A stretch of 64,000 nucleotides of DNA from a virus. Positions 24,175 to 64,000 of the stretch are shown one piece after another. Both the position numbers and the translations under genes were made by a program. Location of the stretch: positions 24,325 to 88,324 of the IMG/VR virus record IMGVR_UViG_3300044644_000945, one strand, 5' to 3'. The notes under the pieces are model-generated. The model was not told the DNA's origin and ran no database searches. It saw only the letters and a list, made by a program, of their open reading frames with translations. The stretch's first letter is position 1; each line of letters begins with the position of its first letter.

Positions 24175-24301
24175 GCTGAGAACTCATTTGTGTTGCTTTT
24201 TGGAAACCTCAGAGTATTTCATCATCATGGGTAATATTTACAAGCTTCTTAACCTATTCCTTTCTCAAGGGAACAACACATCTACCATTACTGATAGTAT
24301 C
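24175..24301 (-). ncRNA. Candidate pseudoknotted RNA
   Basis: GUGUUG/CAACAC stem enclosing a hairpin whose UGAGAA loop is complementary to downstream UUCUCA; GUAA hairpin at 5' end. Confidence 0.45.
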
Positions 24302-24657
24302 TTTATGTAAAACCACGCCAATTTGGCTAACTTTTTACAAAGGTTTCAATGTTTAACCTGTTTTGTACACTATATTATACAAATATGCAAAAAAGCATGT
24401 AAAATGTATAATATAATGTACAGTTATTGTTACTAAAAGCGTGCTTTACAGGATGTCGCTTTTTGCCTGTGAAAATATAACAATATTATTACTTAGCTAC
24501 TTCAAAGTAACCACAGAAGTAGCCATTTATTAATGTTTTATAAAACCTGACTGTTCTGTACCTGTTTTTTAGCAATGTGTATGCTACAATGATTTCTTGA
24601 TAAGTTCTTCTGATAAAATTGATAATTTTTGTTTTCATTTGATTTGTATAAGAGTTA

Positions 24658-24876: not shown

Positions 24877-25135
24877 TTGTTTGTTATTTGAGATTAAAAA
24901 ATATGTGTTGCTCTCTTAGGTAAATTTTAACGTGCCAAACCTACATATAAGGCACAGGTGATTTTTCATCTATCAGTCTTAGAGCATTGACTGGTGACTA
25001 CTTTCTTTCATAAAAAGCGGGTGGAAATAAAAATCATCATACTACATATAGTAATGATAATAGAGAATAAACATATATACTTACATACATAGTTTATGAT
25101 AAAAGAACTAATTTTATGTTCTATTTACTGACTAT

Positions 25136-25313
25136 CAGCTGTGTAGCTATATAGTCGCTGAATTTTTGTTGTTTTTGAGAAGATTTTTTGAGAGTTATAA
25201 TAGTAGGAGAGTGGTTTTGTCATCATCTTAACCACTCTCTTGAACTATCATCTCAAACAAATAATGTTTCTCTTAACTATCTCAGCTACAGAGAGTTAAC
25301 TACTTATCAGTTG
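25136..25313. ncRNA. Candidate rod-like structured element (about 180 nt)
   Basis: Nested inverted repeats around aggagagtggtt/aaccactctctt. Confidence 0.35.
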
Positions 25314-25546
25314 TGTTATTTATAGTAGTTACCATTGAAAAGAACTCTCACTGTTCTGTTGCATTATTCGCAATTGACCCTCGTGCTGAGACAAAATTCT
25401 TTGCAGTATCTCTAACACATTCTACATATTACTGAGAATAGTGCAAGAAACAGTGTTGTTATCTTGTGAAAGAATTGTTTTTGTCTTATGTTGGAAAGAA
25501 CTACACCCTTTTTCAGGGTGTGTTCTAACCTAATCAACTCAACTTA

Positions 25547-26101
25547 CTATGATGGTAAGTTGGCTGTTAACTGCTCTTGGGCAATTCTAAACGCATTCAC
25601 TTCTTCAACATTGTTGTATTGCAACAATTTGTCTTTAGCTACACCTGTTGGGTCGTAGCTTGTGAAGCGCAGAATTCTGTTACCATTGTGTCTAAGCTCA
25701 ATGCCTTCAGCACCTGTACGTTTAACAAACTTGGCAATAGCTGTTTCATATTCAGCTACTTCTTCAGCTGTATAATCACTAACAGGAATTGCTTTCAATT
25801 CCTTTTTAATGTTCAGCCTGTTTTTAAGTTCAGGTCTGTTGTCAATATCAGCCTCAGAGATTTCTTCAATGTGAAGACAACCCTGCATTTGATATTTCAT
25901 TTTTGCAAGACTTGTTTCAAGCTTGCTAATCTCGCCACTAAACAACATAGATTTAGTGTTAGTGACGTGAAGACCATTTGCTGTGAAACTTTCAGAAGTT
26001 TCTTCAACACGAAAATAACCACGTGGCTTGCTTGCGTCACGTTGAGTTTTGCTTGGTGTTACGTAGTCAACACCATTCTTTGATTTACATACTGTAATCA
26101 T
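25547..26101 (-). CDS. Hypothetical protein (putative early gene)
   Basis: 184-aa ORF with CGT/GCT-rich codons; preceded by a cassette motif and followed by a hairpin at about 25498-25526. Confidence 0.7.
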   Translation of the reverse strand: MITVCKSKNGVDYVTPSKTQRDASKPRGYFRVEETSESFTANGLHVTNTKSMLFSGEISKLETSLAKMKYQMQGCLHIEEISEADIDNRPELKNRLNIKKELKAIPVSDYTAEEVAEYETAIAKFVKRTGAEGIELRHNGNRILRFTSYDPTGVAKDKLLQYNNVEEVNAFRIAQEQLTANLPS

Positions 26102-26200
26102 AATAAGGATTTGTTTTAAAGTTATACTGAGCCTTTTGGGGGTGTGGTGGTGGTGTGTTGTTTTGCGCTCTGTTTGGTGGCGGTGTGGTGGTGTTTGTCT
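26102..26200 (-). promoter_or_regulatory. C-rich repeated upstream element, copy A (tandem CACCACCA tracts + TATAACTTTAAAACAAAT)
   Basis: Shared with 4 other intergenic regions. Confidence 0.6.
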
Positions 26201-26202
26201 TT

Positions 26203-26233
26203 AAAAAGAGTGCTGTTGTTACACAGCACTCTT
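26203..26233 (-). terminator. Intrinsic terminator
   Basis: aagagtgctgt/acagcactctt stem, GTAA loop, T-run. Confidence 0.7.
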
Positions 26234-26237
26234 ATTA

Positions 26238-26561
26238 TTACCATACAACAAGTACATCATTTTCAATTAGAAAATGTACTGTGTGACTTGGTACATAGTG
26301 ATGGTTCTTTTTACCACGTACTGTAAATGTACCTCTGTCTACATCAAACCATTTGATTAGAGTTGTAAAATCTAATAGTTTGATATCAAACAGTATTTGC
26401 CAAGAGTCATTTATCTTTCTTGTGGTAACTGTTTCAGATTGTTTGTTAAGTCTATCATGTAAGATAGATGCACCTTGTGAGCAACTTCCTGTTCTCACAA
26501 AGTTTACATTTTCAAAAGGGTTGATGATTTCTTTTGTACCAATGTTAAAATGCTGTGTCAT
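26238..26561 (-). CDS. Hypothetical protein (cassette gene)
   Basis: 107-aa ORF. Confidence 0.6.
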   Translation of the reverse strand: MTQHFNIGTKEIINPFENVNFVRTGSCSQGASILHDRLNKQSETVTTRKINDSWQILFDIKLLDFTTLIKWFDVDRGTFTVRGKKNHHYVPSHTVHFLIENDVLVVW

Positions 26562-26615
26562 AATGATTATTTATTTAAAGTTATATATGTTGGGTGTTTG
26601 GTGGTTTGTGTTTAA
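26562..26615 (-). promoter_or_regulatory. C-rich repeated upstream element, copy B
   Basis: AAACCACCAAACACCCAACATATATAACTTTAAATAAAT before ATG. Confidence 0.55.
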
Positions 26616-26619
26616 AAAT

Positions 26620-26645
26620 AAAGAGATGCTTTTACACATCTCTTT
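26620..26645 (-). terminator. Intrinsic terminator
   Basis: aaagagatg/catctcttt stem, GTAA loop. Confidence 0.65.
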
Positions 26646-26649
26646 ATCA

Positions 26650-27006
26650 TTACTCAGCTAATGCATAAGCTTTACTATTCTCAGAATACTGTTCCCACTC
26701 ATGTATGTTATATCCATTCATTATAAAGCGACTGAACTCAGCAATATTATATTCTTCATCAGATTTATATTTAAAATCAGTTCTTGCTTCATTGTAGTAT
26801 CTAAACTCAGCTGTTTTTACATTAACAATTTTATCCCAATGATTGTAAGATACAAACTTATACAGTTTGTCTTTGATTACAGCTTCTTGGGATATTGCAG
26901 GTTCTGTATAAGTTCCATACAATACTTGCAAAGCAAGTTCAGGATTACCTGTTTGGTTAACTACTTGTAATAGTCCATTTAAGTTTACTTCAATTGTTGT
27001 TTTCAT
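26650..27006 (-). CDS. Hypothetical protein (cassette gene)
   Basis: Probable start ATG 27006 (MKTTIEV) directly after the repeated element. Confidence 0.6.
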   Translation of the reverse strand: MKTTIEVNLNGLLQVVNQTGNPELALQVLYGTYTEPAISQEAVIKDKLYKFVSYNHWDKIVNVKTAEFRYYNEARTDFKYKSDEEYNIAEFSRFIMNGYNIHEWEQYSENSKAYALAE

Positions 27007-27060
27007 AATATTATTTGTTTTAAAGTTATACATATTGGTGGTGAGGAGGTTGTTGTGTAC
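27007..27060 (-). promoter_or_regulatory. C-rich repeated upstream element, copy C
   Basis: CTCACCACCAATATGTATAACTTTAAAACAAAT before ATG. Confidence 0.6.
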
Positions 27061-27073
27061 AATAAAAGTGTTG

Positions 27074-27304
27074 TTAAACAACACCTTTATGTACTACATT
27101 TTCTATTATACTAATGTTTAATAAATCAATGTTTTCTGATAGTAACCAATTGTTACCTGCAATTAGTTTTCCTACAACAATTCTATGTTGTGCAATTAAC
27201 CCATATATTTGTTCTTCTTCATTGATTATATCAATGATTACAAATTCTACTTTTACAATACCAAAAGGGGTGTTTTTTTCAATAATGACTGTTTCGTGTA
27301 ACAT
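27074..27304 (-). CDS. Hypothetical protein (cassette gene)
   Basis: 76-aa ORF. Confidence 0.55.
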   Translation of the reverse strand: MLHETVIIEKNTPFGIVKVEFVIIDIINEEEQIYGLIAQHRIVVGKLIAGNNWLLSENIDLLNISIIENVVHKGVV

Positions 27305-27356
27305 AATTTATTTATTTAAGAGTTATATACTTTGGTGGTGTTGGGGTGCTGTCTTT
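27305..27356 (-). promoter_or_regulatory. C-rich repeated upstream element, copy D
   Basis: CACCCCAACACCACCAAAGTATATAACTCTTAAATAAAT before ATG. Confidence 0.6.
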
Positions 27357-27360
27357 AATG

Positions 27361-27389
27361 AAAAAGCAGGTTGTTACACCTGCTGTTTT
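27361..27389 (-). terminator. Intrinsic terminator
   Basis: agcaggt/acctgct stem, GTAA loop, T-run. Confidence 0.65.
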
Positions 27390-27390
27390 A

Positions 27391-27684
27391 TTAACAACCA
27401 TAATGAGGATGTTCATCAAATGTTGGTTCATGTTCTTCAGGTTCTTCTAATTTTTGAAAACCTATGCCACAAACCATGTAGAAGTCTTCATCATCTTGAA
27501 TGACATCACCTACACATGTTGAACGAACTTCATTCATTGCCCAATCTACATGGTCATTTTGAGCATATTCAAACGCTTTCTCTAATGATGAAGCATTTAC
27601 AAAACCTGCATAAACTCTTGGTTGACATTCAACTTCTTCAAATTTGTTGATACCTGTTGAATGAAAAATGTGATACTGTTTCAT
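27391..27684 (-). CDS. YodL-like domain protein
   Basis: LEKAFEYAQ...RSTCVGDVI...FYMVCGIGF resembles YodL RSLSVGDVV...YYVDSFGF. Confidence 0.55.
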   Translation of the reverse strand: MKQYHIFHSTGINKFEEVECQPRVYAGFVNASSLEKAFEYAQNDHVDWAMNEVRSTCVGDVIQDDEDFYMVCGIGFQKLEEPEEHEPTFDEHPHYGC

Positions 27685-27735
27685 GATAATATTTGTTTAA
27701 AGTTATTTTTAATGGTGGTGTTGTGGTTGTTGTAA
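27685..27735 (-). promoter_or_regulatory. C-rich repeated upstream element, copy E
   Basis: CCACAACACCACCATTAAAAATAACTTTAAACAAAT before ATG. Confidence 0.6.
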
Positions 27736-28090
27736 TAACAATAAAGCACACCTGAGGGTACAGTGTGCTTTATGTTATAATAAATGATAATGCTTTGCTA
27801 AAGCTCCTTTTTGGTATTACATGTCAAAGCAATAAGACAACACCTTTAGTTAGTTAAGTACAATGCTCTTCAGCTACATGTTAAATAATACTACACACTA
27901 CAAGCACAGTCTGGGGGGAGCGACTATGCCTATAGTATATAATATTCTGCATTGCATCTGTACACAATACAATGGAACAATGAAGCAGATTATTTTCTAC
28001 TAAGCTATATTACTTAGTGTACTAACTCTCACCTGAGAAAGTTGGCTTCATAACATAATAACATTCTATACAGAAACTTTTCCCAAAGTT
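27736..28090. repeat. Tandem series of stem-loops in non-coding DNA
   Basis: At least six inverted repeats, e.g. ataaagcacac/gtgtgctttat and actacaagcacagtc/gactatgcctatagt. Confidence 0.55.
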
Positions 28091-28237
28091 ATTCTATATT
28101 TTATATTATCATGCTGTATCAAGTGGGGGTATGGTGGTGCTTGTCTTTTGGCGTGGGGTGGTTTTGGTATACAGTACTCACTTTCTCTTCCTCAGAAGTC
28201 CTGAAAAATACCAAAAATTTTTTTTGAAACACCAAGT

Positions 28238-28267
28238 AAAAAAACCCCAGCAGCACTGCCAGGGTTT
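28238..28267 (-). terminator. Intrinsic terminator
   Basis: aaaccctggcag/ctgctggggttt stem + T-run on minus strand. Confidence 0.65.
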
Positions 28268-28359
28268 CAAAGTCACTGAGAGATTCAAACTCTCATCCAT
28301 CAACTTTAGTTGACATGTTTATCTACTGTGGTATTTATTCCCACTTACACCAAATGACT

Positions 28360-28569
28360 TTAGTTATTCATTGTTAGCATTATGTCTTTCTCTTCTGTTA
28401 TTTCACATTCATAGTGCCAGCTTGCATCGCCATCTATGGTAAGTTTTATAAGCATCCCACCATCAGCTGTACCTTGTACTCCTATGACTTGTCTTGGATC
28501 TTGATTTATATCTGTTTTAACATAGACTACTTGCCCATAGTTAAACTTGCATCTTACTAATATTCCCAT
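28360..28569 (-). CDS. Small SH3-like hypothetical protein
   Basis: KFNYGQVVYVKTD.NQ.PR...WHYECEI. Confidence 0.6.
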   Translation of the reverse strand: MGILVRCKFNYGQVVYVKTDINQDPRQVIGVQGTADGGMLIKLTIDGDASWHYECEITEEKDIMLTMNN

Positions 28570-28874
28570 TATTCTTCTGTATCAGGTTTTACAATTTCTG
28601 CTGTAACTTCTATGTTGTCTACATCTTTTTCATCACTGATCTCATTTAGTATAAGGTTGTACTCATAGTTTGTTATAAGACCTGTAGTTCTATGAACTTC
28701 AACCCCATCTTTTAAAAAGACAAGAACAGGAATTGTTCTTACTCTATACTTAACAGCTGTTTCATGATCTTTGTCTACATTGATCTCTATTAATTTTTCA
28801 CCTTCTAATCTTTGAGAAAGTGCTCTACATGGTCCACACCAATCAGCGTAGAATTTTAAAACTTCTATTTTCAT
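28569..28874 (-). CDS. Thioredoxin
   Basis: FYADWCGPC, VRTIPVL, GVEVHR. Confidence 0.92.
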   Translation of the reverse strand: MKIEVLKFYADWCGPCRALSQRLEGEKLIEINVDKDHETAVKYRVRTIPVLVFLKDGVEVHRTTGLITNYEYNLILNEISDEKDVDNIEVTAEIVKPDTEE

Positions 28875-29034
28875 AATGTTGTATTTAATGCTTGTGTTAA
28901 TGTATAAGTGTTTGATGTAGTTGTGCCACCATAAAGTCTGTCATCTATAGTACTACCTGAACTGCTGTGCCCAAAAATACTTCCTTTATTACGAGTAGTA
29001 GGATACTTACTTGTATTGGACAACAAAGGAAGAT

Positions 29035-29235
29035 TTAAAAATTTCTTACTACAATTTCTATGTTATCTGGATTCTCAGCGTGTGCATCAGGAATGTCTCT
29101 TGTGATTTTAAAGATTAGATCTTTCTCAGATTTAGCTAATGCTGTTGATACAGGGATGATTAGTTTACTATCCTCATACTTACCTTCTTTGTCATATGTG
29201 TGTAGCAACACAGCATATTGAAATAACTTCTTCAT
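29035..29235 (-). CDS. Hypothetical protein, probably extended by a -1 frameshift to stop at 28871
   Basis: Ends A_AAT_TTT_TAA, followed by an 11-bp stem and a 55-codon open -1 frame. Confidence 0.7.
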   Translation of the reverse strand: MKKLFQYAVLLHTYDKEGKYEDSKLIIPVSTALAKSEKDLIFKITRDIPDAHAENPDNIEIVVRNF

Positions 29236-29256
29236 GTGTTTTTTGTTTTAAAATTA

Positions 29257-29309
29257 TTTTACAAATATATAATAAATTTGTAAAAGTTAAACTTTTCTTT
29301 ATATATTTG
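29257..29309. promoter_or_regulatory. Divergent Bacteroidota-type promoters at the arm switch
   Basis: Plus strand TTTG 29277-29280 + 21 nt + TATATTTG 29302-29309; minus strand TATATTTG 29262-29269; inverted repeat ttttacaaat/atttgtaaaa. Confidence 0.7.
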
Positions 29310-29336
29310 TAGTGTTAATTTAAATAAACAAAAAAC

Positions 29337-29741
29337 ATGAGCACACAAACAGAAGAAAAAAAGACACCTACTAAAGCAGAGGTGTTAAATTTTTACAAAG
29401 AACAAATTGAAGTTGCAAAACTTAGAAGAGATCTTGCAGAGATTGTATGTATAACTGCTGAGTTTGATGCAAGAAGAGTTGAAGCTATTGCTAAGCAAGC
29501 ACACTTTTCTAGACCAGCACAACAACAACCACCACAACAAGAAGGTATGCCAGAGGGAGTGATTCCTCATACTGTAACACAAGAGGACTTGGATGCAAAT
29601 CCTGAGTTAGCAGAACAAGGCATTAAGGTGGGTGATGTAGTTGGTATTTCAGAAAGACCACAACCTGAAGAACAAATGATGTCTGAAATTGATCCAGCTG
29701 CAGAAGATGAAGCTCCAGTAAGAAAACTAAAAAAAGACTAA
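29337..29741 (+). CDS. Hypothetical protein
   Basis: Coiled-coil N-terminus, HTVTQEDLDANPEL..QGIKVGD motif. Confidence 0.7.
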   Translation: MSTQTEEKKTPTKAEVLNFYKEQIEVAKLRRDLAEIVCITAEFDARRVEAIAKQAHFSRPAQQQPPQQEGMPEGVIPHTVTQEDLDANPELAEQGIKVGDVVGISERPQPEEQMMSEIDPAAEDEAPVRKLKKD

Positions 29742-30974: not shown

Positions 30975-31045
30975 AGTGTGGTAGAGTAATGGTAACTTGC
31001 TGGACTCATATTCCAGAGCTGAGGGTTCGACTCCCTCCCACGCAA
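30975..31045 (+). tRNA. tRNA-Met(CAT), initiator-like; CCA not encoded
   Basis: Cloverleaf AGTGTGG/CCACGCA, D-arm GAGT/ACTT, anticodon CTGGA-CTCATAT-TCCAG, T-arm GAGGG-TTCGACT-CCCTC; 1:72 mismatch and A11:U24. Confidence 0.9.
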
Positions 31046-31059
31046 CTAAAGATAAAAGT

Positions 31060-31259: not shown

Positions 31260-31578
31260 GGGGGTGACTGGTTTTGACAGGTCATTAGTAGGTAGTACAA
31301 TCAGCCAGAGAGATAACTGTAAACTAAGGTGAATTTAATAAATGGCAAAAACACAATCAGTGTAGTATCTCTAGGAGACAACGCACAAGTAGAAGCTAAC
31401 ATGAACAAAGTATTCTCTTTATTAGGAGAAGAAGTTGCTGTAGCAGCCTAGATTAAAAAGATTTCTCTGTTAGATTAAACAGAGTGGTGGATTGCTCAAG
31501 CCAAGCTTGACCCTATAAGCTGTATAAATTGTATTATTGATCATGGTTTGGACAGGGGTTCGACTCCCCTCACCTCCA
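31260..31578 (+). ncRNA. ssrA: tmRNA
   Basis: GGGGGTGACTGGTTTTGAC 5' end; GGTTCGACTCCCCTCACCTCCA 3' end with G3:U70; tag ORF 31344-31451 ending AVAA-stop. Confidence 0.92.
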
Positions 31579-31644
31579 CAAAATGTACAGTATTCTGTAC
31601 AAAATTGCACATTATGTGTGAAATAACCAACATTGAGAGAAGAA

Positions 31645-51116: not shown

Positions 51117-51197
51117 ATGAGCAATCCAGTATCAACTTGTGTGAATCCTTTAATAGCATTATTAAACAGATCACTTTTACCAAGTACAACACCTTAA
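51117..51197 (+). CDS. 26-aa mini-ORF repeating the C-terminal motif of the upstream gene
   Basis: MSNPVSTCVNPLIALLNRSLLPSTTP with an A-rich leader. Confidence 0.45.
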   Translation: MSNPVSTCVNPLIALLNRSLLPSTTP

Positions 51198-51222
51198 TAT
51201 TAATTATAAAAATAAAAATAAA

Positions 51223-51816
51223 ATGGCTGATTTAAACACTATTAAAGCTAACATAGAAACATACCTTGATGCAGGGTTTTTTGATGTAGAATGTAACACA
51301 TGTTGTCCTGAATGTGGAAACATTTATGTATTTGCAAATGCAGAAATATTTTTAACATGGGCAGAAGCTGTAGGAGCAACAGTTAATCCTGGAGATGATC
51401 CTATTATTTCAGAAACTCCATGTTGCTATGAAAGATGTATTACAGAATTATACGAGTATGTAGGTTCTGCAGAAAACATTGAAAGAATATTAGATACTGG
51501 AATTGCAGAATATTCTACAATACAAGGAAAATCTTTTGTATGTCTTTTATTAGATTTTGCTGATGAAAATGATTTATCTGGAGATGATTTAACAGAATTA
51601 CTTTTGTCTATTCTTGATTTAGGTATTGTTGTTAGTTGCATTAATGGTAACACAGTAGTATCTAGTGTATCAGAGTGGACTAAATGGGCACAAGCAGCAT
51701 TAGAAAGTCCTATTATTACGTGTAAAAATGCTTGTTGTTTAACTACAACAGGTGGCTTACTAAAAAATTTACAACTTGCTGAGGCATTAGGATGGCTTCC
51801 TAATAATGGAGGATAA
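51223..51816 (+). CDS. Acidic Cys-rich protein with internal LDxG repeats
   Basis: YLDAG / ILDTG / ILDLG repeats, CC pairs. Confidence 0.6.
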   Translation: MADLNTIKANIETYLDAGFFDVECNTCCPECGNIYVFANAEIFLTWAEAVGATVNPGDDPIISETPCCYERCITELYEYVGSAENIERILDTGIAEYSTIQGKSFVCLLLDFADENDLSGDDLTELLLSILDLGIVVSCINGNTVVSSVSEWTKWAQAALESPIITCKNACCLTTTGGLLKNLQLAEALGWLPNNGG

Positions 51817-57529: not shown

Positions 57530-58675
57530 ATGCCATTAACTGAACCTAAATATAGAACCTTTGATGATTTAATGGACAGTGTTAAAATTGATTTATACAC
57601 TTATGATCTTGAAGGTCTTTTAAATCCTCAACAAATGATCAAAGTTGCAATGCGTTGTAACTATGATTTAGGATTGCGCATTAACATGCAAAAGTCTAGA
57701 ATAATAGATATACGTAAAGGAAAGGGTAAAGTTCCAGAAGACATGGATGTGTTAAACTTTGCTTTAGTATGTGAAGATAGATTAGTATCTGAAATTCCTA
57801 GTTATAATAAAACATATACTGAAGGTATTCTTGAAGGAGTTATATTAGCTCAAAACTTTTTAGAGCCAAGGTTTGTTAATCAATCTACAATATACACAGA
57901 TGTTACATTAGGTATGAATGTGATTAATCATCAGTTACATACTATGAATGTAGTAATACAAGCTTTTGCAACTGATGGTAGTTTACTAGATTTTGATGTT
58001 ACTGTTTTAGATATGGACAATGTAAGACTATACTCTGAATCAGTTCAAACAATAATAGGTGTTAAGATTGTTGTAATGGGTGCTAAAATAAGTACTGTTG
58101 GTACTGGTTCAGGAACTTGTCCTGCATTACTTGACTGTGCTGCAGATGGTACACCTAGAGTTTATTACACAACAAATGGTAGAAGAAATGAAAGCAGAAA
58201 TCCTGTAAGACTTCATATATACAAAACTGAATCATTATCTCCTGAATGTAGAGAAGATTATGATGCAAGAATGGATGATAGTTTTATAACAGGATTAGGT
58301 AGAAAAAAAGGTAACTACTATGATGCATATTTAAAGAATGGATTCTTACATGTTAACTTTGATGAAGGAGTTGTATTTTTAAATTACCAATCAGTTATGG
58401 AAGATGATGATGGTAATTTACTTGTATTAGATAATCCATATACAAATGAGTATTATGAGTATGCATTAAAGCAACGTATATTTGAAAACTTATTTATGGC
58501 AGGTGAACCTGTACAAAATCATTTACAACTAATGAGTGGTCAATTAAGAGCTGCAAGAAACAATGCTTTGTCTTTTGTTAATACTCCTGATTTTGCTGAG
58601 ATGAAAAAACTACATGATATGAACAGAAAAGCTCAATATCATAATTATTATAATATGTTCAAAAATTATTTATAA
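57530..58675 (+). CDS. Putative tail ring/tubular protein with inserted beta-domain
   Basis: LHVNFDEGVVFLNYQ...DDDGN pattern; gene order. Confidence 0.65.
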   Translation: MPLTEPKYRTFDDLMDSVKIDLYTYDLEGLLNPQQMIKVAMRCNYDLGLRINMQKSRIIDIRKGKGKVPEDMDVLNFALVCEDRLVSEIPSYNKTYTEGILEGVILAQNFLEPRFVNQSTIYTDVTLGMNVINHQLHTMNVVIQAFATDGSLLDFDVTVLDMDNVRLYSESVQTIIGVKIVVMGAKISTVGTGSGTCPALLDCAADGTPRVYYTTNGRRNESRNPVRLHIYKTESLSPECREDYDARMDDSFITGLGRKKGNYYDAYLKNGFLHVNFDEGVVFLNYQSVMEDDDGNLLVLDNPYTNEYYEYALKQRIFENLFMAGEPVQNHLQLMSGQLRAARNNALSFVNTPDFAEMKKLHDMNRKAQYHNYYNMFKNYL

Positions 58676-61600
58676 TGGCTGAAGATACAACAAACCAAGA
58701 TAGCTTACCAACTAAAGGTTCAAGTACAGGAAAAACAAATAGTTTTATAAAAGGCATGGTCAAAGATTTTTCAGAAATCTTTGTGCCTGAAGGAGTATGG
58801 ACTAATGCTATCAATGCTATTAATACATCACATAAAGGTGATGAAGGTAATCTTGGTAATGAACAGTCTAATAAATATTGTACATCTGCAACTTATACTA
58901 TTATAGGTTTATTACACAAGTATAGAACTGAATGGGTTGTATTTACTACTGATGATACAAATTCTGAAATAGGAATATTTGATGAAGCAGATTGTTCATA
59001 TACAGTAATAGTAAATGACAGATGTTTAAATTTTAAAAAGAAATATATAATTACAGGAGCTGTAAAGTATAATGCAGATTGTACTTATTCTGTGTACTGG
59101 CAAGATAATAATAATCCAGATAGAACATTAAATCTTGATCCTTCACGTATACCTTACATATGTACACCTATTCCAAATAGTTGTGGTGAAGAAAATTGTA
59201 CTAATGAATTAGACTGTGAACAACTTAGATTACATCCATATGTACAACAACCTTGCATTACTGTAGAAACAGCTGTAGGTTCAGGTCAATTACAAAATGG
59301 TAGTTATCAAGCAGTTATAGCATATTCTAATAATGGAATCAGACTTACAGATTATACCACTCCTTCAACTCCACAAGCATTATGGGACCATTCATCTTTT
59401 GGAGGATCAATAGATATTAATATTTCTAACTTAGATCCAAACTTTGAAGAGTATGAATTAGTTATTGTATCAGTTATTGCAAATCAAACTGTTGCAAAAA
59501 AAGTTGGCAATTATGATATTTCTCAAACTAAAGTACATTTAGATCAATACTTAGCAAGTTTAGAAACAATACCATTATCACTAATTCCTTTAAGATCACA
59601 GATATATGAGAAAAGTAAAAAGATGTTTTCTCTTAACAACTATCTTATAAGAACTAGTGTAACTACACAACCTTATTTTAATTATCAACCTTTTGCTAAT
59701 AAAATAAGAACAGAATGGGTTGCTGTACAATATCCTGCTGATTATTACTGGAAAGGTGGTAACAAAACAGGATACATGCGTGATGAAGTATATGCATTCT
59801 TTATTAGATGGGTATACAAAACAGGTGCAAAATCTGCATCTTATCATATTCCTGGTAGAGCTTCTCTTCCATCTGATGTTGTTATATTATCATCAGGTAA
59901 TTCAGATGTATTGCCAGGTAAAGATAAAGTATGGCAAACATATGATACATCTACAATTGCAGGTTTATCTGGTACATTGTCTGATGGTGGAGTTATAATT
60001 AATAAAGGTGACATGGCTTATTGGGAGTCAGGAGATGGAAGTGGAAATTCATGTTATAGTGTTAGCAATCCTAATACTGGTAATTGTTATCCTGATAATC
60101 ATCCTGAAATATGGGGCGATCTTTGTGGTAAACCAATAAGACATCACAAGATGCCATCTAATGAAACTATACATATTCATGATACAACAGGTAATTTTAT
60201 AAATATACTTGGTGTTCAGTTTAATAATATAGTACATCCTATAGATAATCAAGGTAATCCTATTAAAGATATTGCAGGATATGAAATATTAAGAGGTTCA
60301 AGAGAAGGTAACAGAACAGTTGTTGCTAAAGGTTTATTTAATAACATGCTTCAATATGATATACCAGGATCTACTGCTGGTGGTAGAAAAGGACTTGTTC
60401 AAAATTATCCTTATAATGATTTACGCCCTGATCCTTTTTTAAGTTCTAACATAACACCAGTAAGAGATTATTTTTCTTTTAACTCACCTGAAACAGCATT
60501 TGTTAAACCATATTTAGGTAGAGGTGTGTATGCTAGGATATATAAAGAACAATATGGTGTTGCTGCAGGTGCATATGAATTACCATATAGACATCCTAAG
60601 TTTAAAGTTTTAAGTGATACAGCATTTGGTTTTGCTTCTGTAGTAGGTTTAGGAATAGCTCTTTTATCAATAGTAGGTAAATCAAGTACTACTACAAGTA
60701 ATACTGGACATACTACTTTACCTGGGGCTCCTACACCTTTTTCAGCTGGAGAAAATATTAATAATGTGCTTCCATGGAAAATTCTTCCTACTAGTATTTA
60801 TCTAGGTTCTGCTGGAAGTAATGCAGGTGAAGTTAATCAAGTAACAAGAAATCCTCAATTTAATTTTGATACTAGTACAACAATAACTTCTGATGGTGGT
60901 CCAGGATCACTAGCTAGCAGTATTGCAAATTTTTCATTACAATTAGGTGCAAATGCAGGTACTTCAGGAAATACACTTCAAGTAGCTTCTACAATAGCAC
61001 AAATAGTGGCTATAGCTACTGCAATAGGAACAGGTACATTTTATTTTTATCAGGCAACACAACAAATGATTGAGATTATTAGAAAAATGGTTCCTTTTAG
61101 AAATTATGTGTTGCAATATAATAGTCATGGATTTTATAATAGTCATGGTAATGTTACAAATACAAATGTACCAAGTGGAGTACGACCTTCATTTAATAGA
61201 ACACTAACATCAGGTGGTGTTAAATATATAGGAACAGGTATACAAGATTTTAATACAAGTTATAGAATAAATAATCTTTTTAGAGGTAAATATGTTTGTA
61301 TTAATTTAACTAATAATACTAGTTTACCAGATATAACAGGTACTAATGCAGATATTTCAAAAATACATGTTACTCCAAGTAATCCTTTTAATATTAAGAA
61401 TACAAAGATAGCATCATATTATGGAGCTTTAAAACTTGATTATGAAAATCAATATGGTCAATTAAGTTCTATTGTACAAATACCAACTGATTCATGCATA
61501 TATCCTACTGCACCAGAATTAAATACAACACATTTTACTGCACCTATATTTGGTGGTGATGTTTATATAAATAGATATACAGATAAAAATCCATATTTCT

Positions 61601-63228
61601 TTTTTAATACATGGTTAATAAATGAACCTGATGGTATAGAATATAATTATGGAAATTATTTTAATGGACCTGAACCACAATATTATGCAAATTTTGAAGA
61701 CTATGATATATATAAAGACTTCACTATTGATATAGGTTTTGTATATTTTAATTTAGGCACTCCTAGTGATAAATATACTTTATATCCTTCTGGTCCTAAT
61801 GGCATACTTGCTTTTTCAGTTAGTGGAAAATGGATGTATTTGTTTAACAATGGAGTAAAAGATTTCTTTGTTGAATCAGAATTAAACATGGCATTTAGAG
61901 ACTATGGTGAAAATGATTGGGAAAAGTTCTATGATGTATATGGAAATACTTTTAATGATGTTTCTACAATGTTTAGATCAGACTTAATAACTAGACCAGT
62001 ATTTTATAAATATGACTTATCACTTAGCACAGCAAAACTGTACAACAATTTCATATCTTGGGGATTACTGTTACCAGCAGACTATGACCCAGTGTTATAT
62101 GAAACATGTTATGAATACTTTCCATACAGAGGTATCTATTCATTACAACAACAAGATGGACTTAAAAGAGACAACTGGAGAAACTTCTTACCACTTAACT
62201 ACTATACCTTTGAAGGAATAGTAACAAATATAAAAGCAGTTAACTCTAGTGGTGCTTTAGTTCTTTATGAAGATTTTAGTCCTTCACAATTTGTAGGTGT
62301 TGATACACTTAAAACAGATACAGGTGGTACTAAAATTACTATTGGTGATGGTGGATTATTTGCTAATAATATACAATCTCTTGTTAATGCAGAAGATGTT
62401 ATTGAGTATGGAGCTAGTATTTCAAATAGAGCTACACTTAATACACCTTATGGTTTATTCTTTGTATCACAAAAAGCTGGTAAAGTAATACAGTATGGTT
62501 CTGAAGGTATGAATGAAATATCTAAAGCAGGAATGAAAAACTGGTTTCTTCAAAACTTACCTTCTCCTTTATTAGAAGCATTTCCTGATTTTACAGAATA
62601 TGACAATCCTGTAGCAGGTATTGCTGTACAAGCTGTATATGATGCACAGTATGAATTATTATACATAACTAAAAAAGATTATAAGCCACTTGATTGTGTA
62701 GGATATGATCCTACCTTTGGTTTTTATGACACATGTGCTTGTGGAAATTGTCCTCCTAATTATACTTTAAATGGTACAATTTGTGAAAGAAATTTTGACA
62801 CTTCATTGTGTGATGATCCAACTTATACTTATAATCCAATAACAGGTGATTGTGAAAAAATAACTACTGAAAATGCTATATGTGATCCTCCTGTTCCACT
62901 TAATGTATTTACTTTTTGGTATGAAGCTTTAATAGGATGTGTTAATTATTTAACTAATTTTACACAAGGTACTTTACAATATGCAAAATGTTCATGGTTA
63001 AATAGATTTGACAATAGTGGTTGCAATAATGAGGTTGTTTCTCAAGGTGTTGCTCGTTATATATATGGAACCATAGCTGTTGGCTCTTTAATATATGATG
63101 GTATCAATCCAACTCCAGTTACTACAATGAATGGTAACTATGTGTCTAATAGTAATCAAACTGTGATAACTATTGCAGCAGGAGTTGTAACTGCAATAAC
63201 AAATTTTAGTGATATACCAAATTGTTAA
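58675..63228 (+). CDS. Tail muzzle/stabilization protein, probably N-terminal part
   Basis: F.KGM.KD...W..A.NA..S..GD.G.LGNE, GYMRDEVYAF, IRHHKMP, GGDVYINRY, FFVESE, YITKKDY; ends in Cys-rich repeats. Confidence 0.75.
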   Translation: MAEDTTNQDSLPTKGSSTGKTNSFIKGMVKDFSEIFVPEGVWTNAINAINTSHKGDEGNLGNEQSNKYCTSATYTIIGLLHKYRTEWVVFTTDDTNSEIGIFDEADCSYTVIVNDRCLNFKKKYIITGAVKYNADCTYSVYWQDNNNPDRTLNLDPSRIPYICTPIPNSCGEENCTNELDCEQLRLHPYVQQPCITVETAVGSGQLQNGSYQAVIAYSNNGIRLTDYTTPSTPQALWDHSSFGGSIDINISNLDPNFEEYELVIVSVIANQTVAKKVGNYDISQTKVHLDQYLASLETIPLSLIPLRSQIYEKSKKMFSLNNYLIRTSVTTQPYFNYQPFANKIRTEWVAVQYPADYYWKGGNKTGYMRDEVYAFFIRWVYKTGAKSASYHIPGRASLPSDVVILSSGNSDVLPGKDKVWQTYDTSTIAGLSGTLSDGGVIINKGDMAYWESGDGSGNSCYSVSNPNTGNCYPDNHPEIWGDLCGKPIRHHKMPSNETIHIHDTTGNFINILGVQFNNIVHPIDNQGNPIKDIAGYEILRGSREGNRTVVAKGLFNNMLQYDIPGSTAGGRKGLVQNYPYNDLRPDPFLSSNITPVRDYFSFNSPETAFVKPYLGRGVYARIYKEQYGVAAGAYELPYRHPKFKVLSDTAFGFASVVGLGIALLSIVGKSSTTTSNTGHTTLPGAPTPFSAGENINNVLPWKILPTSIYLGSAGSNAGEVNQVTRNPQFNFDTSTTITSDGGPGSLASSIANFSLQLGANAGTSGNTLQVASTIAQIVAIATAIGTGTFYFYQATQQMIEIIRKMVPFRNYVLQYNSHGFYNSHGNVTNTNVPSGVRPSFNRTLTSGGVKYIGTGIQDFNTSYRINNLFRGKYVCINLTNNTSLPDITGTNADISKIHVTPSNPFNIKNTKIASYYGALKLDYENQYGQLSSIVQIPTDSCIYPTAPELNTTHFTAPIFGGDVYINRYTDKNPYFFFNTWLINEPDGIEYNYGNYFNGPEPQYYANFEDYDIYKDFTIDIGFVYFNLGTPSDKYTLYPSGPNGILAFSVSGKWMYLFNNGVKDFFVESELNMAFRDYGENDWEKFYDVYGNTFNDVSTMFRSDLITRPVFYKYDLSLSTAKLYNNFISWGLLLPADYDPVLYETCYEYFPYRGIYSLQQQDGLKRDNWRNFLPLNYYTFEGIVTNIKAVNSSGALVLYEDFSPSQFVGVDTLKTDTGGTKITIGDGGLFANNIQSLVNAEDVIEYGASISNRATLNTPYGLFFVSQKAGKVIQYGSEGMNEISKAGMKNWFLQNLPSPLLEAFPDFTEYDNPVAGIAVQAVYDAQYELLYITKKDYKPLDCVGYDPTFGFYDTCACGNCPPNYTLNGTICERNFDTSLCDDPTYTYNPITGDCEKITTENAICDPPVPLNVFTFWYEALIGCVNYLTNFTQGTLQYAKCSWLNRFDNSGCNNEVVSQGVARYIYGTIAVGSLIYDGINPTPVTTMNGNYVSNSNQTVITIAAGVVTAITNFSDIPNC

Positions 63229-63246: not shown

Positions 63247-64000
63247 ATGGCTTGCACATGCACTAGCACACCAACAAAAATATGTACACCAATTACAGCT
63301 GGTAGTCAAACAATTTGTAATTGTATAGAATCAAAACCACCAATACCATGTGCAGGAGAAATTATTGATCTTGGAAATAATACATGGATATGTAGAGATA
63401 CTCAAACTGTTGCAACTTCAGAGTGTAGTGAAGTATCTTGTGATGAAGCAAATGGTTTTGTATACAATCCTGTAACAAATAAATGTGAAAAAACTGTAAC
63501 AAGTCCTCCATGTGCAGGTGGTTATGTATTTAATCCTATAACAGAAGAATGTGAACCTCCTGGAGTAGATCCTACACCAATGTGTCCTCCAGGATCTACA
63601 TATAATTTTAGTACAAATACATGTACTACTTCTTCATTAAGTCCTGCTATTGTAAATACTACAACAGCATGTAAAGCTGATATAGTAATACTTGTTAGTC
63701 CATGTTCTGACCCTAATATAACACTTCGTAGAAAAGCTTTTTATGAACAACTTATAACTAATTTAACTCCAGGTTTAAATTCAGGAGATATTAGATTACA
63801 AGTTATGGTTTCATCAGTAGCTGCTCCTCCTTCAGTTGTTCGATTACTTGCAGGAACAGGTACTTTTTCTGGTCAACCTGGTGGAGCTGCAGCATTTTTT
63901 CAAAGTTTAAGTTCAACTTTTAGTTCAGCTACATCTTCTTGTAATGTAGGAAACAGTACTGCTAGAGGAATGATAGCTGCAATGGCTCCACTTTATGTAA
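63247..64000 (+). CDS. Cys-repeat protein with probable vWA-like domain, truncated by window edge
   Basis: Hand-translated from ATG 63247: repeated C..GY.YNP.T..CEK units, then CKADIVILV. Confidence 0.65.
   Translation, partial: MACTCTSTPTKICTPITAGSQTICNCIESKPPIPCAGEIIDLGNNTWICRDTQTVATSECSEVSCDEANGFVYNPVTNKCEKTVTSPPCAGGYVFNPITEECEPPGVDPTPMCPPGSTYNFSTNTCTTSSLSPAIVNTTTACKADIVILVSPCSDPNITLRRKAFYEQLITNLTPGLNSGDIRLQVMVSSVAAPPSVVRLLAGTGTFSGQPGGAAAFFQSLSSTFSSATSSCNVGNSTARGMIAAMAPLYV

Follow-up and report, generated by a model that had tools for sequence, protein, structure and literature searches.

Repeated intergenic junctions in a crAss-like phage as candidate phage-specific promoters and sites of cassette exchange

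The window analyzed here, a stretch of 64,000 nucleotides (nt) that corresponds to bases 24325-88324 of an 88,324-bp linear virus record (70% complete by CheckV), contains an array of five small and unrelated genes, each of which is preceded by nearly the same intergenic sequence. What might such a repeated junction do for the genes that it separates, and what might read it? We consider it probable that each junction is a composite of an intrinsic terminator, a phage-specific promoter and a short unstructured leader, and that the same sequence serves as a recombination site. The phage itself is a crAss-like virus, a member of a group that is among the most abundant phages known; its terminase shares ~25% identity with the terminases of crAss-like phages of the gut, Flavobacterium and Cellulophaga, and its portal and capsid families are concordant with this placement. 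Environmental relatives number in the hundreds, and DNA of the phage is present in lake and freshwater metagenomes. A leftward arm starts at 29235 with small genes that are followed by replication genes, and a rightward arm starts at 29337 and carries PhoH, tRNA and transfer-messenger RNA (tmRNA) genes as well as the packaging and structural genes; the cassette array lies 1.5-3.7 kb into the leftward arm. The relatives to which we compared the phage (referred to as G000) include a very close one, L007 (terminase 95% identical), the metagenome contig L181, a series of further loci bearing L numbers, and the genomes G001-G004, for three of which the completeness is 99% (G002), 89% (G003, 112 kb) and 100% (G004).

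An earlier note on this DNA had described five consecutive, unrelated minus-strand genes (starts at 27684, 27304, 27006, 26561 and 26101) that share an upstream architecture, and both the genes and their motifs were found as described (Table 1). A junction covers ~90 nt and consists of a hairpin with a U-run, a C/A tract that includes CACCACCA, a box of the TATAACTTTAAA type and, 11-13 nt further on, the ATG; the alignment of one junction with another extends over ~90 nt, from stop codon to ATG. The corresponding WATAACTYTWAA boxes occupy positions 27696-27707, 27316-27327, 27019-27030, 26574-26585 and 26115-26126 of the minus strand. The tracts are C/A-rich and not, as had been claimed, composed strictly of these two bases, and the GUAA-loop hairpins that had been assigned to three of the junctions are there, with loops of the form GUAA(C/A)A. 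At each junction a hairpin (-11 to -18 kcal/mol) is followed by a U-rich run, and seven such hairpins, which we call predicted terminators on the basis of their fold and U-run, part the units of the array from each other. Only 55-135 nt separate a hairpin from the next ATG, and the sole conserved sequence within this interval is the repeated element composed of the C-rich box (C-box) and the A/T or AAC box. All five cassette genes have an A at position -3, a known positive determinant in Flavobacterium. The five proteins had zero matches in Pfam and PHROGs, and no function was found for them in Pfam, PHROGs and the Atlas or, for gene 5, in a profile search and in a fold search with a model that has a predicted local distance difference test (pLDDT) score of 73. 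Gene 5 is the one cassette gene that is retained throughout the clade, and none of its 49 database relatives has a name.

The C-box is the array-specific part of the repeat. CACCACCA occurs 13 times in the window as against 1.28 copies expected, a count that 0 of 100 shuffles reach; six of the copies lie within the array and a seventh at 28132. The combined pattern CACCACCA-N8-AAC-N-YTWAA is exclusive to the array both in this phage and in G001, its closest relative. The consensus of 15 junctions pooled from this phage, L007 and L181 is ACCAC-NN-CACCACCA, 8 nt, AACTYTAAA, and the spacing between C-box and AAC is exactly 8 nt in 11 of the 15, with variable letters in the spacer. At junction 5, CACCACCA lies 21 nt from AAC (and not 8) in all three strains.

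The earlier note had made the TATAACTTTAAA box a part of the array-specific promoter as well, and this is where we depart from it, since the box also precedes the capsid gene and other genes, both here and in five relatives. Matches to the 12-mer A/T box with no more than one mismatch amount to 12 in the entire window, with 4.5 expected, which is no enrichment; five of the 12 are in the array, where they lie on one strand, within 1.6 kb and at an equal distance to an ATG. Of 100 other genes, 10 have the shorter AAC-N-YTWA no more than 36 nt from their start, at a distance to the ATG that is mostly 9-16 nt (3.6 expected from composition-matched shuffles, 6 out of 2000 of which reach 10). Among these genes are the major capsid gene, replication genes and a late gene of 422 amino acids (aa) in which the box comes immediately after a host-type -7 box. 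The AAC box has been retained before the capsid genes of L007, L010, L015, L020 and L023 despite the divergence of its surroundings. The A/T box contains UAACUUUAA, which represents 9 of the 10 bases of the epsilon enhancer of T7 gene 10; it is present at junctions 1, 3, 4 and 5, where it ends 11-14 nt before the ATG, and some relatives carry the exact TTAACTTT. Because the A/T box also precedes other genes and contains UAACUUUAA, it is more likely, with moderate support, to be a general leader or translation element than a promoter. A promoter reading seems reasonable for the C-box and doubtful for TATAACTTTAAA.

If the C-box is part of a promoter, is it one that the host would recognize? The primary-sigma promoters of the Bacteroidetes have a -7 element TAnnTTTG ~7 nt before the transcription start and a -33 element TTTG ~19-21 nt upstream. 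A regular-expression (regex) scan of the genome located host-type boxes at 29269 (-), 29302 (+) and 54904 (+), and no TAnnTTTG in the junctions, in agreement with what had been noted earlier about the leaders of the array. Regex scanning and inspection of the junctions likewise yielded neither a -33 TTTG at the right distance nor a full -7 box of a Bacteroidetes sigma-A promoter; TAACTTTA differs from TAnnTTTG at its last base only, the final G being missing. The plus-strand host-type promoter, TTTG-N21-TATATTTG, is letter-for-letter identical in ten relatives, and its architecture is that of the middle promoters P070 and P075 of phage phi14:2, which are read by the host polymerase. A phage-specific promoter within the junctions is plausible because the gene follows a strong predicted terminator, the repeated element is the only conserved sequence before the ATG, and the -33 and -7 elements of the host are lacking.

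Comparison with more distant lineages bears on the same question. Relatives with terminase identities as low as 62-72% have an array at the equivalent position, behind a conserved 69-aa gene, and the C-box differs between them. In L020 it is CCAAACACCC, of which 8 copies lie on one strand within 4 kb of the 112-kb genome G003; in L014 and L015 it is CAACACCT-N3-CCCC and in L023 it is TTCCANCACC. The C-box has drifted between lineages and the host-type signal has not, which suggests a reader encoded by the phages themselves. The pattern was also matched by six viral contigs (L001-L006), in which the element does not recur and which are otherwise without signs of kinship, and by 118 loci in a metagenome scan, a number that is about what chance would yield; only L181 and L198 among the latter are relatives.

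A sixth junction, which follows the first leftward operon with its strong terminator and precedes ~340 nt that contain no open reading frame (ORF), adds to this picture. It has a weak AATAACTTTGGG downstream, at 28082-28093, it is conserved in L007 at 2508, and it has in common with junction 5 the core CCCC-N8-CAGYAT, which we refer to as class II; the arrangement at junction 5 is retained in L007 and L181. Among 210 kb of loci that were fetched by way of relatives of gene 5, the class II pattern occurs 24 times on the strand of the array and once on the other strand. It is the repeated junction motif of the lineages L239, L241 and L242, and in L007, L014, L015 and L229-L231 it is followed by a comparable segment without an ORF; strict copies are limited to one each in G001 and G002, with none in G003 and G004, i.e., class II is not universal. 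The C-box is therefore not coupled to a start codon, given that junction 6 and the class II junctions related to it are followed by sequence free of ORFs. The stretch itself (27745-28085) has a minimum free energy of -96.4 kcal/mol (z = -4.15) and contains a 25-bp hairpin in addition to a 3' hairpin with a GUACCCUCA loop. The region from 27736 to 28270 is 92.8% identical to its counterpart in L007, as compared to ~85% for the flanking genes. Contigs from RNA libraries cover parts of 27745-28085, which says nothing about expression. The stretch is a candidate for an early small RNA, and its position is comparable to that of the early non-coding RNAs of phi14:2.

The earlier proposal that the repeats allow genes to be swapped as cassettes gained support from the gene content of the relatives, in which replaced genes are delimited by the ATG on one side and by the stop codon or hairpin on the other. 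Homology to L007 is restricted to 25450-26241, 27302-27384 and 27681-29500. In the comparisons with L007 and L181, the blocks of homology end at an ATG (27302, 27681) and at a stop codon or hairpin (26241, 26653). In L007 a single 153-aa gene replaces genes 2-4, and a 32-aa ORF replaces gene 1; junction 2 (83 nt) is 90% identical to L007 1886-1966 though the genes on either side of it differ. The seven cassettes of L181 hold an 82-aa gene that is new, genes 1 and 2, a gene of 156 aa that is related to the one in L007, new genes of 116 aa and 88 aa, and gene 5, and the sequence at L181 2435-2534 is 88% identical to junction 4 with unrelated genes on either side. Yet another replacement, with bounds at 26622 and 27302, is present in a 2.2-kb RNA-library contig. 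The RNA libraries (three runs, together with one DNA run) were available as Logan contigs, which reveal neither the starts of transcripts nor their strand or level; where a contig ends at a junction, strain variation may be the cause.

These observations can be accommodated by the following mechanism. The intrinsic terminator would end the previous unit, and the C-rich box would confer promoter specificity, as AACCAC-NN-CACCACCA located 8 nt before AAC in junctions 1-4 and as CCCC-N8-CAGYAT in junctions 5 and 6. The leader, with its AAC-N-YTWA box 11-14 nt before the ATG and its A at -3, would provide a general signal for expression or translation and not one that is specific to the cassettes. 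Transcription might start at or just before the AAC box, which would give leaders of ~15-25 nt. The reader would not be the host sigma-A; it would most likely be a giant polymerase with the motif DFDID that is encoded in this clade and presumably injected, which would make early genes of the cassettes, an identification that we regard as quite possible but still short of probable. Finally, the ~90 nt of similarity between junctions could allow recombination between them to add, delete or replace genes.

The case for such a polymerase comes mainly from the relatives. G001 has an ORF of 3,855 aa with SDFDID, and G002-G004 have ORFs of 3,788-4,566 aa with DFDVD or DFDID, and these motifs are the catalytic signature of gp66, the virion polymerase of phi14:2 (bioRxiv 10.1101/2020.03.07.982082). 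Since the giant ORFs of the relatives carry this signature, the polymerase gene of the present phage most likely lies in the missing 30% of the record; the genome sizes of relatives, 110-126 kb, suggest that ~30 kb, the polymerase gene included, are missing. Within the record, DFDxD is absent from the large proteins, gp66 is unmatched, and the proteins of 1,517 aa and 2,023 aa have no match in PDB. Sigma-70 region 2 and region 4 domains were found in none of G000, G001, G002 and G004 in a search whose positive controls worked; the T7-like polymerase family PF00940 also had no match, a result that is uninformative as the control gave none either. Because the relatives carry giant ORFs with DFD[IV]D and no sigma-70 domains were found, the virion polymerase appears to be the leading candidate for a reader of the C-box. 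The 1,517-aa protein (58675-63228, +) was considered as a polymerase and rejected, since it has no DxDxD and matches virion structural families. As a separate observation, it resembles large structural proteins of the Cellulophaga phages phi17:2 and phi4:1, of a Leptolyngbya phage and of an epsilon crAss-like phage.

Several observations weigh against promoters that are read by a phage polymerase. No RNA polymerase gene is recognizable in the 70%-complete record. The early transcripts of phi14:2, the only crAss-like phage to have been tested, had no detectable upstream motif in common (bioRxiv 10.1101/2020.03.07.982082). Classes I and II differ in the distance between C-box and AAC, which a single mode of recognition leaves unexplained. 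The enrichment of the AAC box outside of the array is moderate, as the reversed pattern used as a control is found at 6 genes, compared to the 10 observed. The stretch from C-box to ATG is unstructured, with leaders that fold at 0 to -0.3 kcal/mol, and this would suit a role at the level of RNA as well. Lastly, two RNA-library contigs bridge entire junctions (2 and 1), by virtue of either read-through or DNA in the library.

How well do other explanations cope with the same evidence? The one that fares best, although we consider it unlikely, is that the junctions do contain promoters and that these are read by the host polymerase after its redirection by an alternative sigma factor of the host or by a phage-encoded activator or appropriator, in the manner of the T4 middle promoters, so that the cassettes would be delayed-early or middle genes. 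Such an arrangement would make sense of TAACTTTA, which is a single (last) base away from the Bacteroidetes -7 box TAnnTTTG, and of the hexamers before AAC (CAGTAT, GTATAT), which are -10-like. [quoted passage not shown] However, the junctions lack both a correctly spaced -33 TTTG and a full -7 box, their motif changes fast between lineages as compared to the invariant host-type promoter, and the genomes G000, G001, G002 and G004 have yielded no sigma-70 domain, with the proviso that very divergent sigma-like or activator proteins would escape such a search.

More unlikely still, in our estimate, is that the junctions contain no promoter at all and that their genes are expressed by read-through from upstream, with the hairpins serving as attenuators or stabilizers of RNA and the C/A tract and AAC box serving as a landing site or enhancer for ribosomes in lieu of a Shine-Dalgarno sequence. 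The nearly unfolded leaders and the contigs that bridge junctions 2 and 1 would be expected if this were so, and the AAC box, a general pre-ATG element that shares 9 of 10 bases with the T7 epsilon, and the A at -3 in 5 of 5 genes fit well with it. On the other hand, a succession of six or seven strong hairpins, each with its U-run, would allow little RNA to reach the distal genes; other genes have a well-placed AAC box without a C-box; junction 6 and the class II copies of relatives stand before sequence with no ORF; and in L020 the distance between C-box and ATG ranges from 28 to 44 nt. Very improbable is the idea that the repeats are mere leftovers of tandem duplication or recombination with no sequence-specific function. 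The ~90-nt alignment of junctions is what copies of one ancestor should display, but the boxes have been retained between unrelated genes with a spacer that is fixed in length and variable in letters, and analogous arrays with other motifs hold this place even in relatives whose terminases are 62-72% identical.

Three further candidates were rejected outright. Hairpins that act as promoters in the style of phage N4 are at odds with a distance between hairpin and C-box that varies from 0 to ~75 nt and with the variation in stems and loops; Rho-utilization tracts would not be expected to measure merely 20-30 nt, as most of the tracts do; and repeats for replication or packaging do not agree with copies that are all co-oriented with the genes and abut ATGs.

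The composite junctions, with their putative phage-specific promoters, have a close parallel in the PeSL (promoter-early stem-loop) cassettes of the T4-type phages RB49, phi1, PST and nt-1, whose promoters match the host sigma-70 consensus and are of demonstrated activity (PMC2839356, PMC4122927). In both systems a repeated intergenic element that combines a terminator stem-loop, an early promoter and a translation signal (all predicted in the present case) lies upstream of ORFan genes in a variable region, and in both the breakpoints of insertions, deletions and replacements between close relatives fall in the repeats. The junctions differ from PeSLs in that they lack the consensus of their (Bacteroidetes) host, in that their promoter is a predicted one and in that they occur in a lineage of crAss-like podoviruses. 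By this analogy, they represent the PeSL idea in a crAss-like phage, in a variant that departs from the host consensus.

With phi14:2 the phage has in common, by way of its relatives, a giant protein with a DFDID or DFDVD motif; in both, the replication arm begins with small ORFan genes and long stretches free of ORFs, and host-type -33/-7 promoters are present elsewhere. In contrast to the early transcripts of phi14:2, for which no common motif was reported, the sequence of the present phage contains a sharp repeated motif. In the phi14:2 locus L100 (250-2200) we noticed that the early genes g002, g003 and g004 have TTAACAAYTAAAAC 5-10 nt before the ATG, and that the leader of g002 (TATAAACAATTAAAACAAATC-ATG) resembles junction 5, although the published study reported no common early motif.

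The A/T box and the hairpins bring to mind two other systems. Promoters of the N4 type have as their recognition element a short hairpin at a fixed distance from the start. In coliphage N4 such hairpin early promoters are read by an injected polymerase (reviewed in PMC4496689). An injected polymerase with few phage-specific early promoters is what we propose here, and a hairpin is near each junction as well; the hairpins of the junctions differ in carrying terminator-like U-runs, and the conserved part with fixed spacing is the linear C-box. According to the account cited in PMC9590205, the epsilon translational enhancer in the T7 gene 10 leader is UUAACUUUAA, with a motif UUAACUUUA(A) upstream of the AUG. 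The UAACUUUAA of the A/T box is likewise in a leader upstream of the AUG, a resemblance of sequence that we take as a lead only; the T7 element stands upstream of a Shine-Dalgarno sequence, which the junctions do not have.

We know of no promoter consensus that has been described for a crAss-like virion RNA polymerase, and the array offers a short and sharply defined candidate start signal, with fixed spacing, for an injected enzyme of this kind. The separation of the candidate C-box from the general leader element indicates which bases to mutate, and the finding that strains exchange what might be small early genes at these same repeats would extend the PeSL principle to a very different group of phages. 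A bolder proposal, which we offer as doubtful, is that the C-boxes are the first defined promoters of an injected crAss-type polymerase (CACCACCA-N8-AAC in this lineage and CCCC-N8-CAGYAT in the clade), that they co-evolve with the polymerase, drive the expression of host-takeover genes and of a structured early RNA, and double as recombination sites, and that in Bacteroidota phages AAC-N-YTWA takes the place of a Shine-Dalgarno sequence in the manner of epsilon.

Table 1. Features of the cassette array and its surroundings, listed in the leftward direction (window coordinates)
Feature	Position	Strand	Description
Back-to-back host-type promoters	29262..29309	.	-7 boxes (TATATTTG) at 29262-29269 (-) and 29302-29309 (+)
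Junction 6	28111..28168	-	C-rich tracts 28153-28168 and 28123-28139; CCCC 28125-28128, N8, CAGCAT 28111-28116
ORF-free structured stretch, candidate small RNA	27745..28085	-	Between junctions 6 and 1; ends in hairpin with GUACCCUCA loop
Hairpin before junction 1, terminator-like	27743..27772	-	-15.0 kcal/mol; U-rich tail
Junction 1, class I	27685..27730	-	C/A tract; CACCACCA 27713-27720, N8, AACTTTAAA 27696-27704; ATG 27684
Gene 1, 97 aa	27391..27684	-	No family; 97% identical in L181; 45% identical stretch in L020 over residues 1-76
Junction 2, class I	27305..27390	-	Hairpin 27365-27384 with GUAACA loop; CACCACCA 27333-27340; TATAACTCTTAA 27316-27327; ATG 27304
Gene 2, 76 aa	27074..27304	-	No family; homologue in L181, none in L007
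Junction 3, class I	27007..27084	-	Hairpin 27068-27084; CACCACCA 27036-27043; TATAACTTTAAA 27019-27030; ATG 27006
Gene 3, 118 aa	26650..27006	-	No family; 156-aa gene in its place in L181
Junction 4, class I, degenerate C-box	26562..26649	-	Hairpin ~26621-26643 with GUAAAA loop; C/A tract 26588-26610; TATAACTTTAAA 26574-26585; ATG 26561
Gene 4, 107 aa	26238..26561	-	No family; missing in L007 and L181
Junction 5, class II	26102..26237	-	Hairpin ~26208-26232 with GUAACA loop; C/A tract ~65 nt; ATG 26101
Junction 5 core		-	CCCC 26138-26141, N8, CAGTAT 26124-26129, AACTTTAAA 26115-26123
Gene 5, 184 aa	25547..26101	-	Homologues in L007, L014, L015, L019, L020, L023 and L181
Hairpin closing the array, terminator-like	25503..25521	-	-16.0 kcal/mol

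A few minor observations concern the surroundings of the array and the record as a whole. Upstream of junction 6, between the 69-aa gene and the strong terminator (28270-28360, -), is a hairpin that resembles a T-arm (GAGAG-UUUGAAU-CUCUC); ARAGORN and Rfam recognize no tRNA there. Just to the right of the divergent promoters are a tRNA-Met (30975-31046) and a tmRNA (31260-31579; 89 bits in Rfam), both on the plus strand. Terminal repeats of the record were looked for and none were found; the record is a linear fragment whose last ORF (63247-64000, +) runs off the end, with no in-frame join to its first bases. Before a 197-aa gene at 51223 there is a CAACACCTTAAT with an A/T-rich run (51176-51222, +) that resembles the C-box of L014 and L015, a single copy that may be due to chance. 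Beyond gene 5, a region of ~600 nt (24931-25536) is free of ORFs, and parts of it are 76-78% identical in L008 and L012; ~227 nt of this neighborhood (24886-25111) are absent in L181. Further on, a 57-nt piece (24255-24311) recurs with unrelated flanks in several different contigs that come from two studies (three RNA-library runs), at a very high word depth (>500 in two of the runs), and may be a small conserved RNA element of phages or their hosts.

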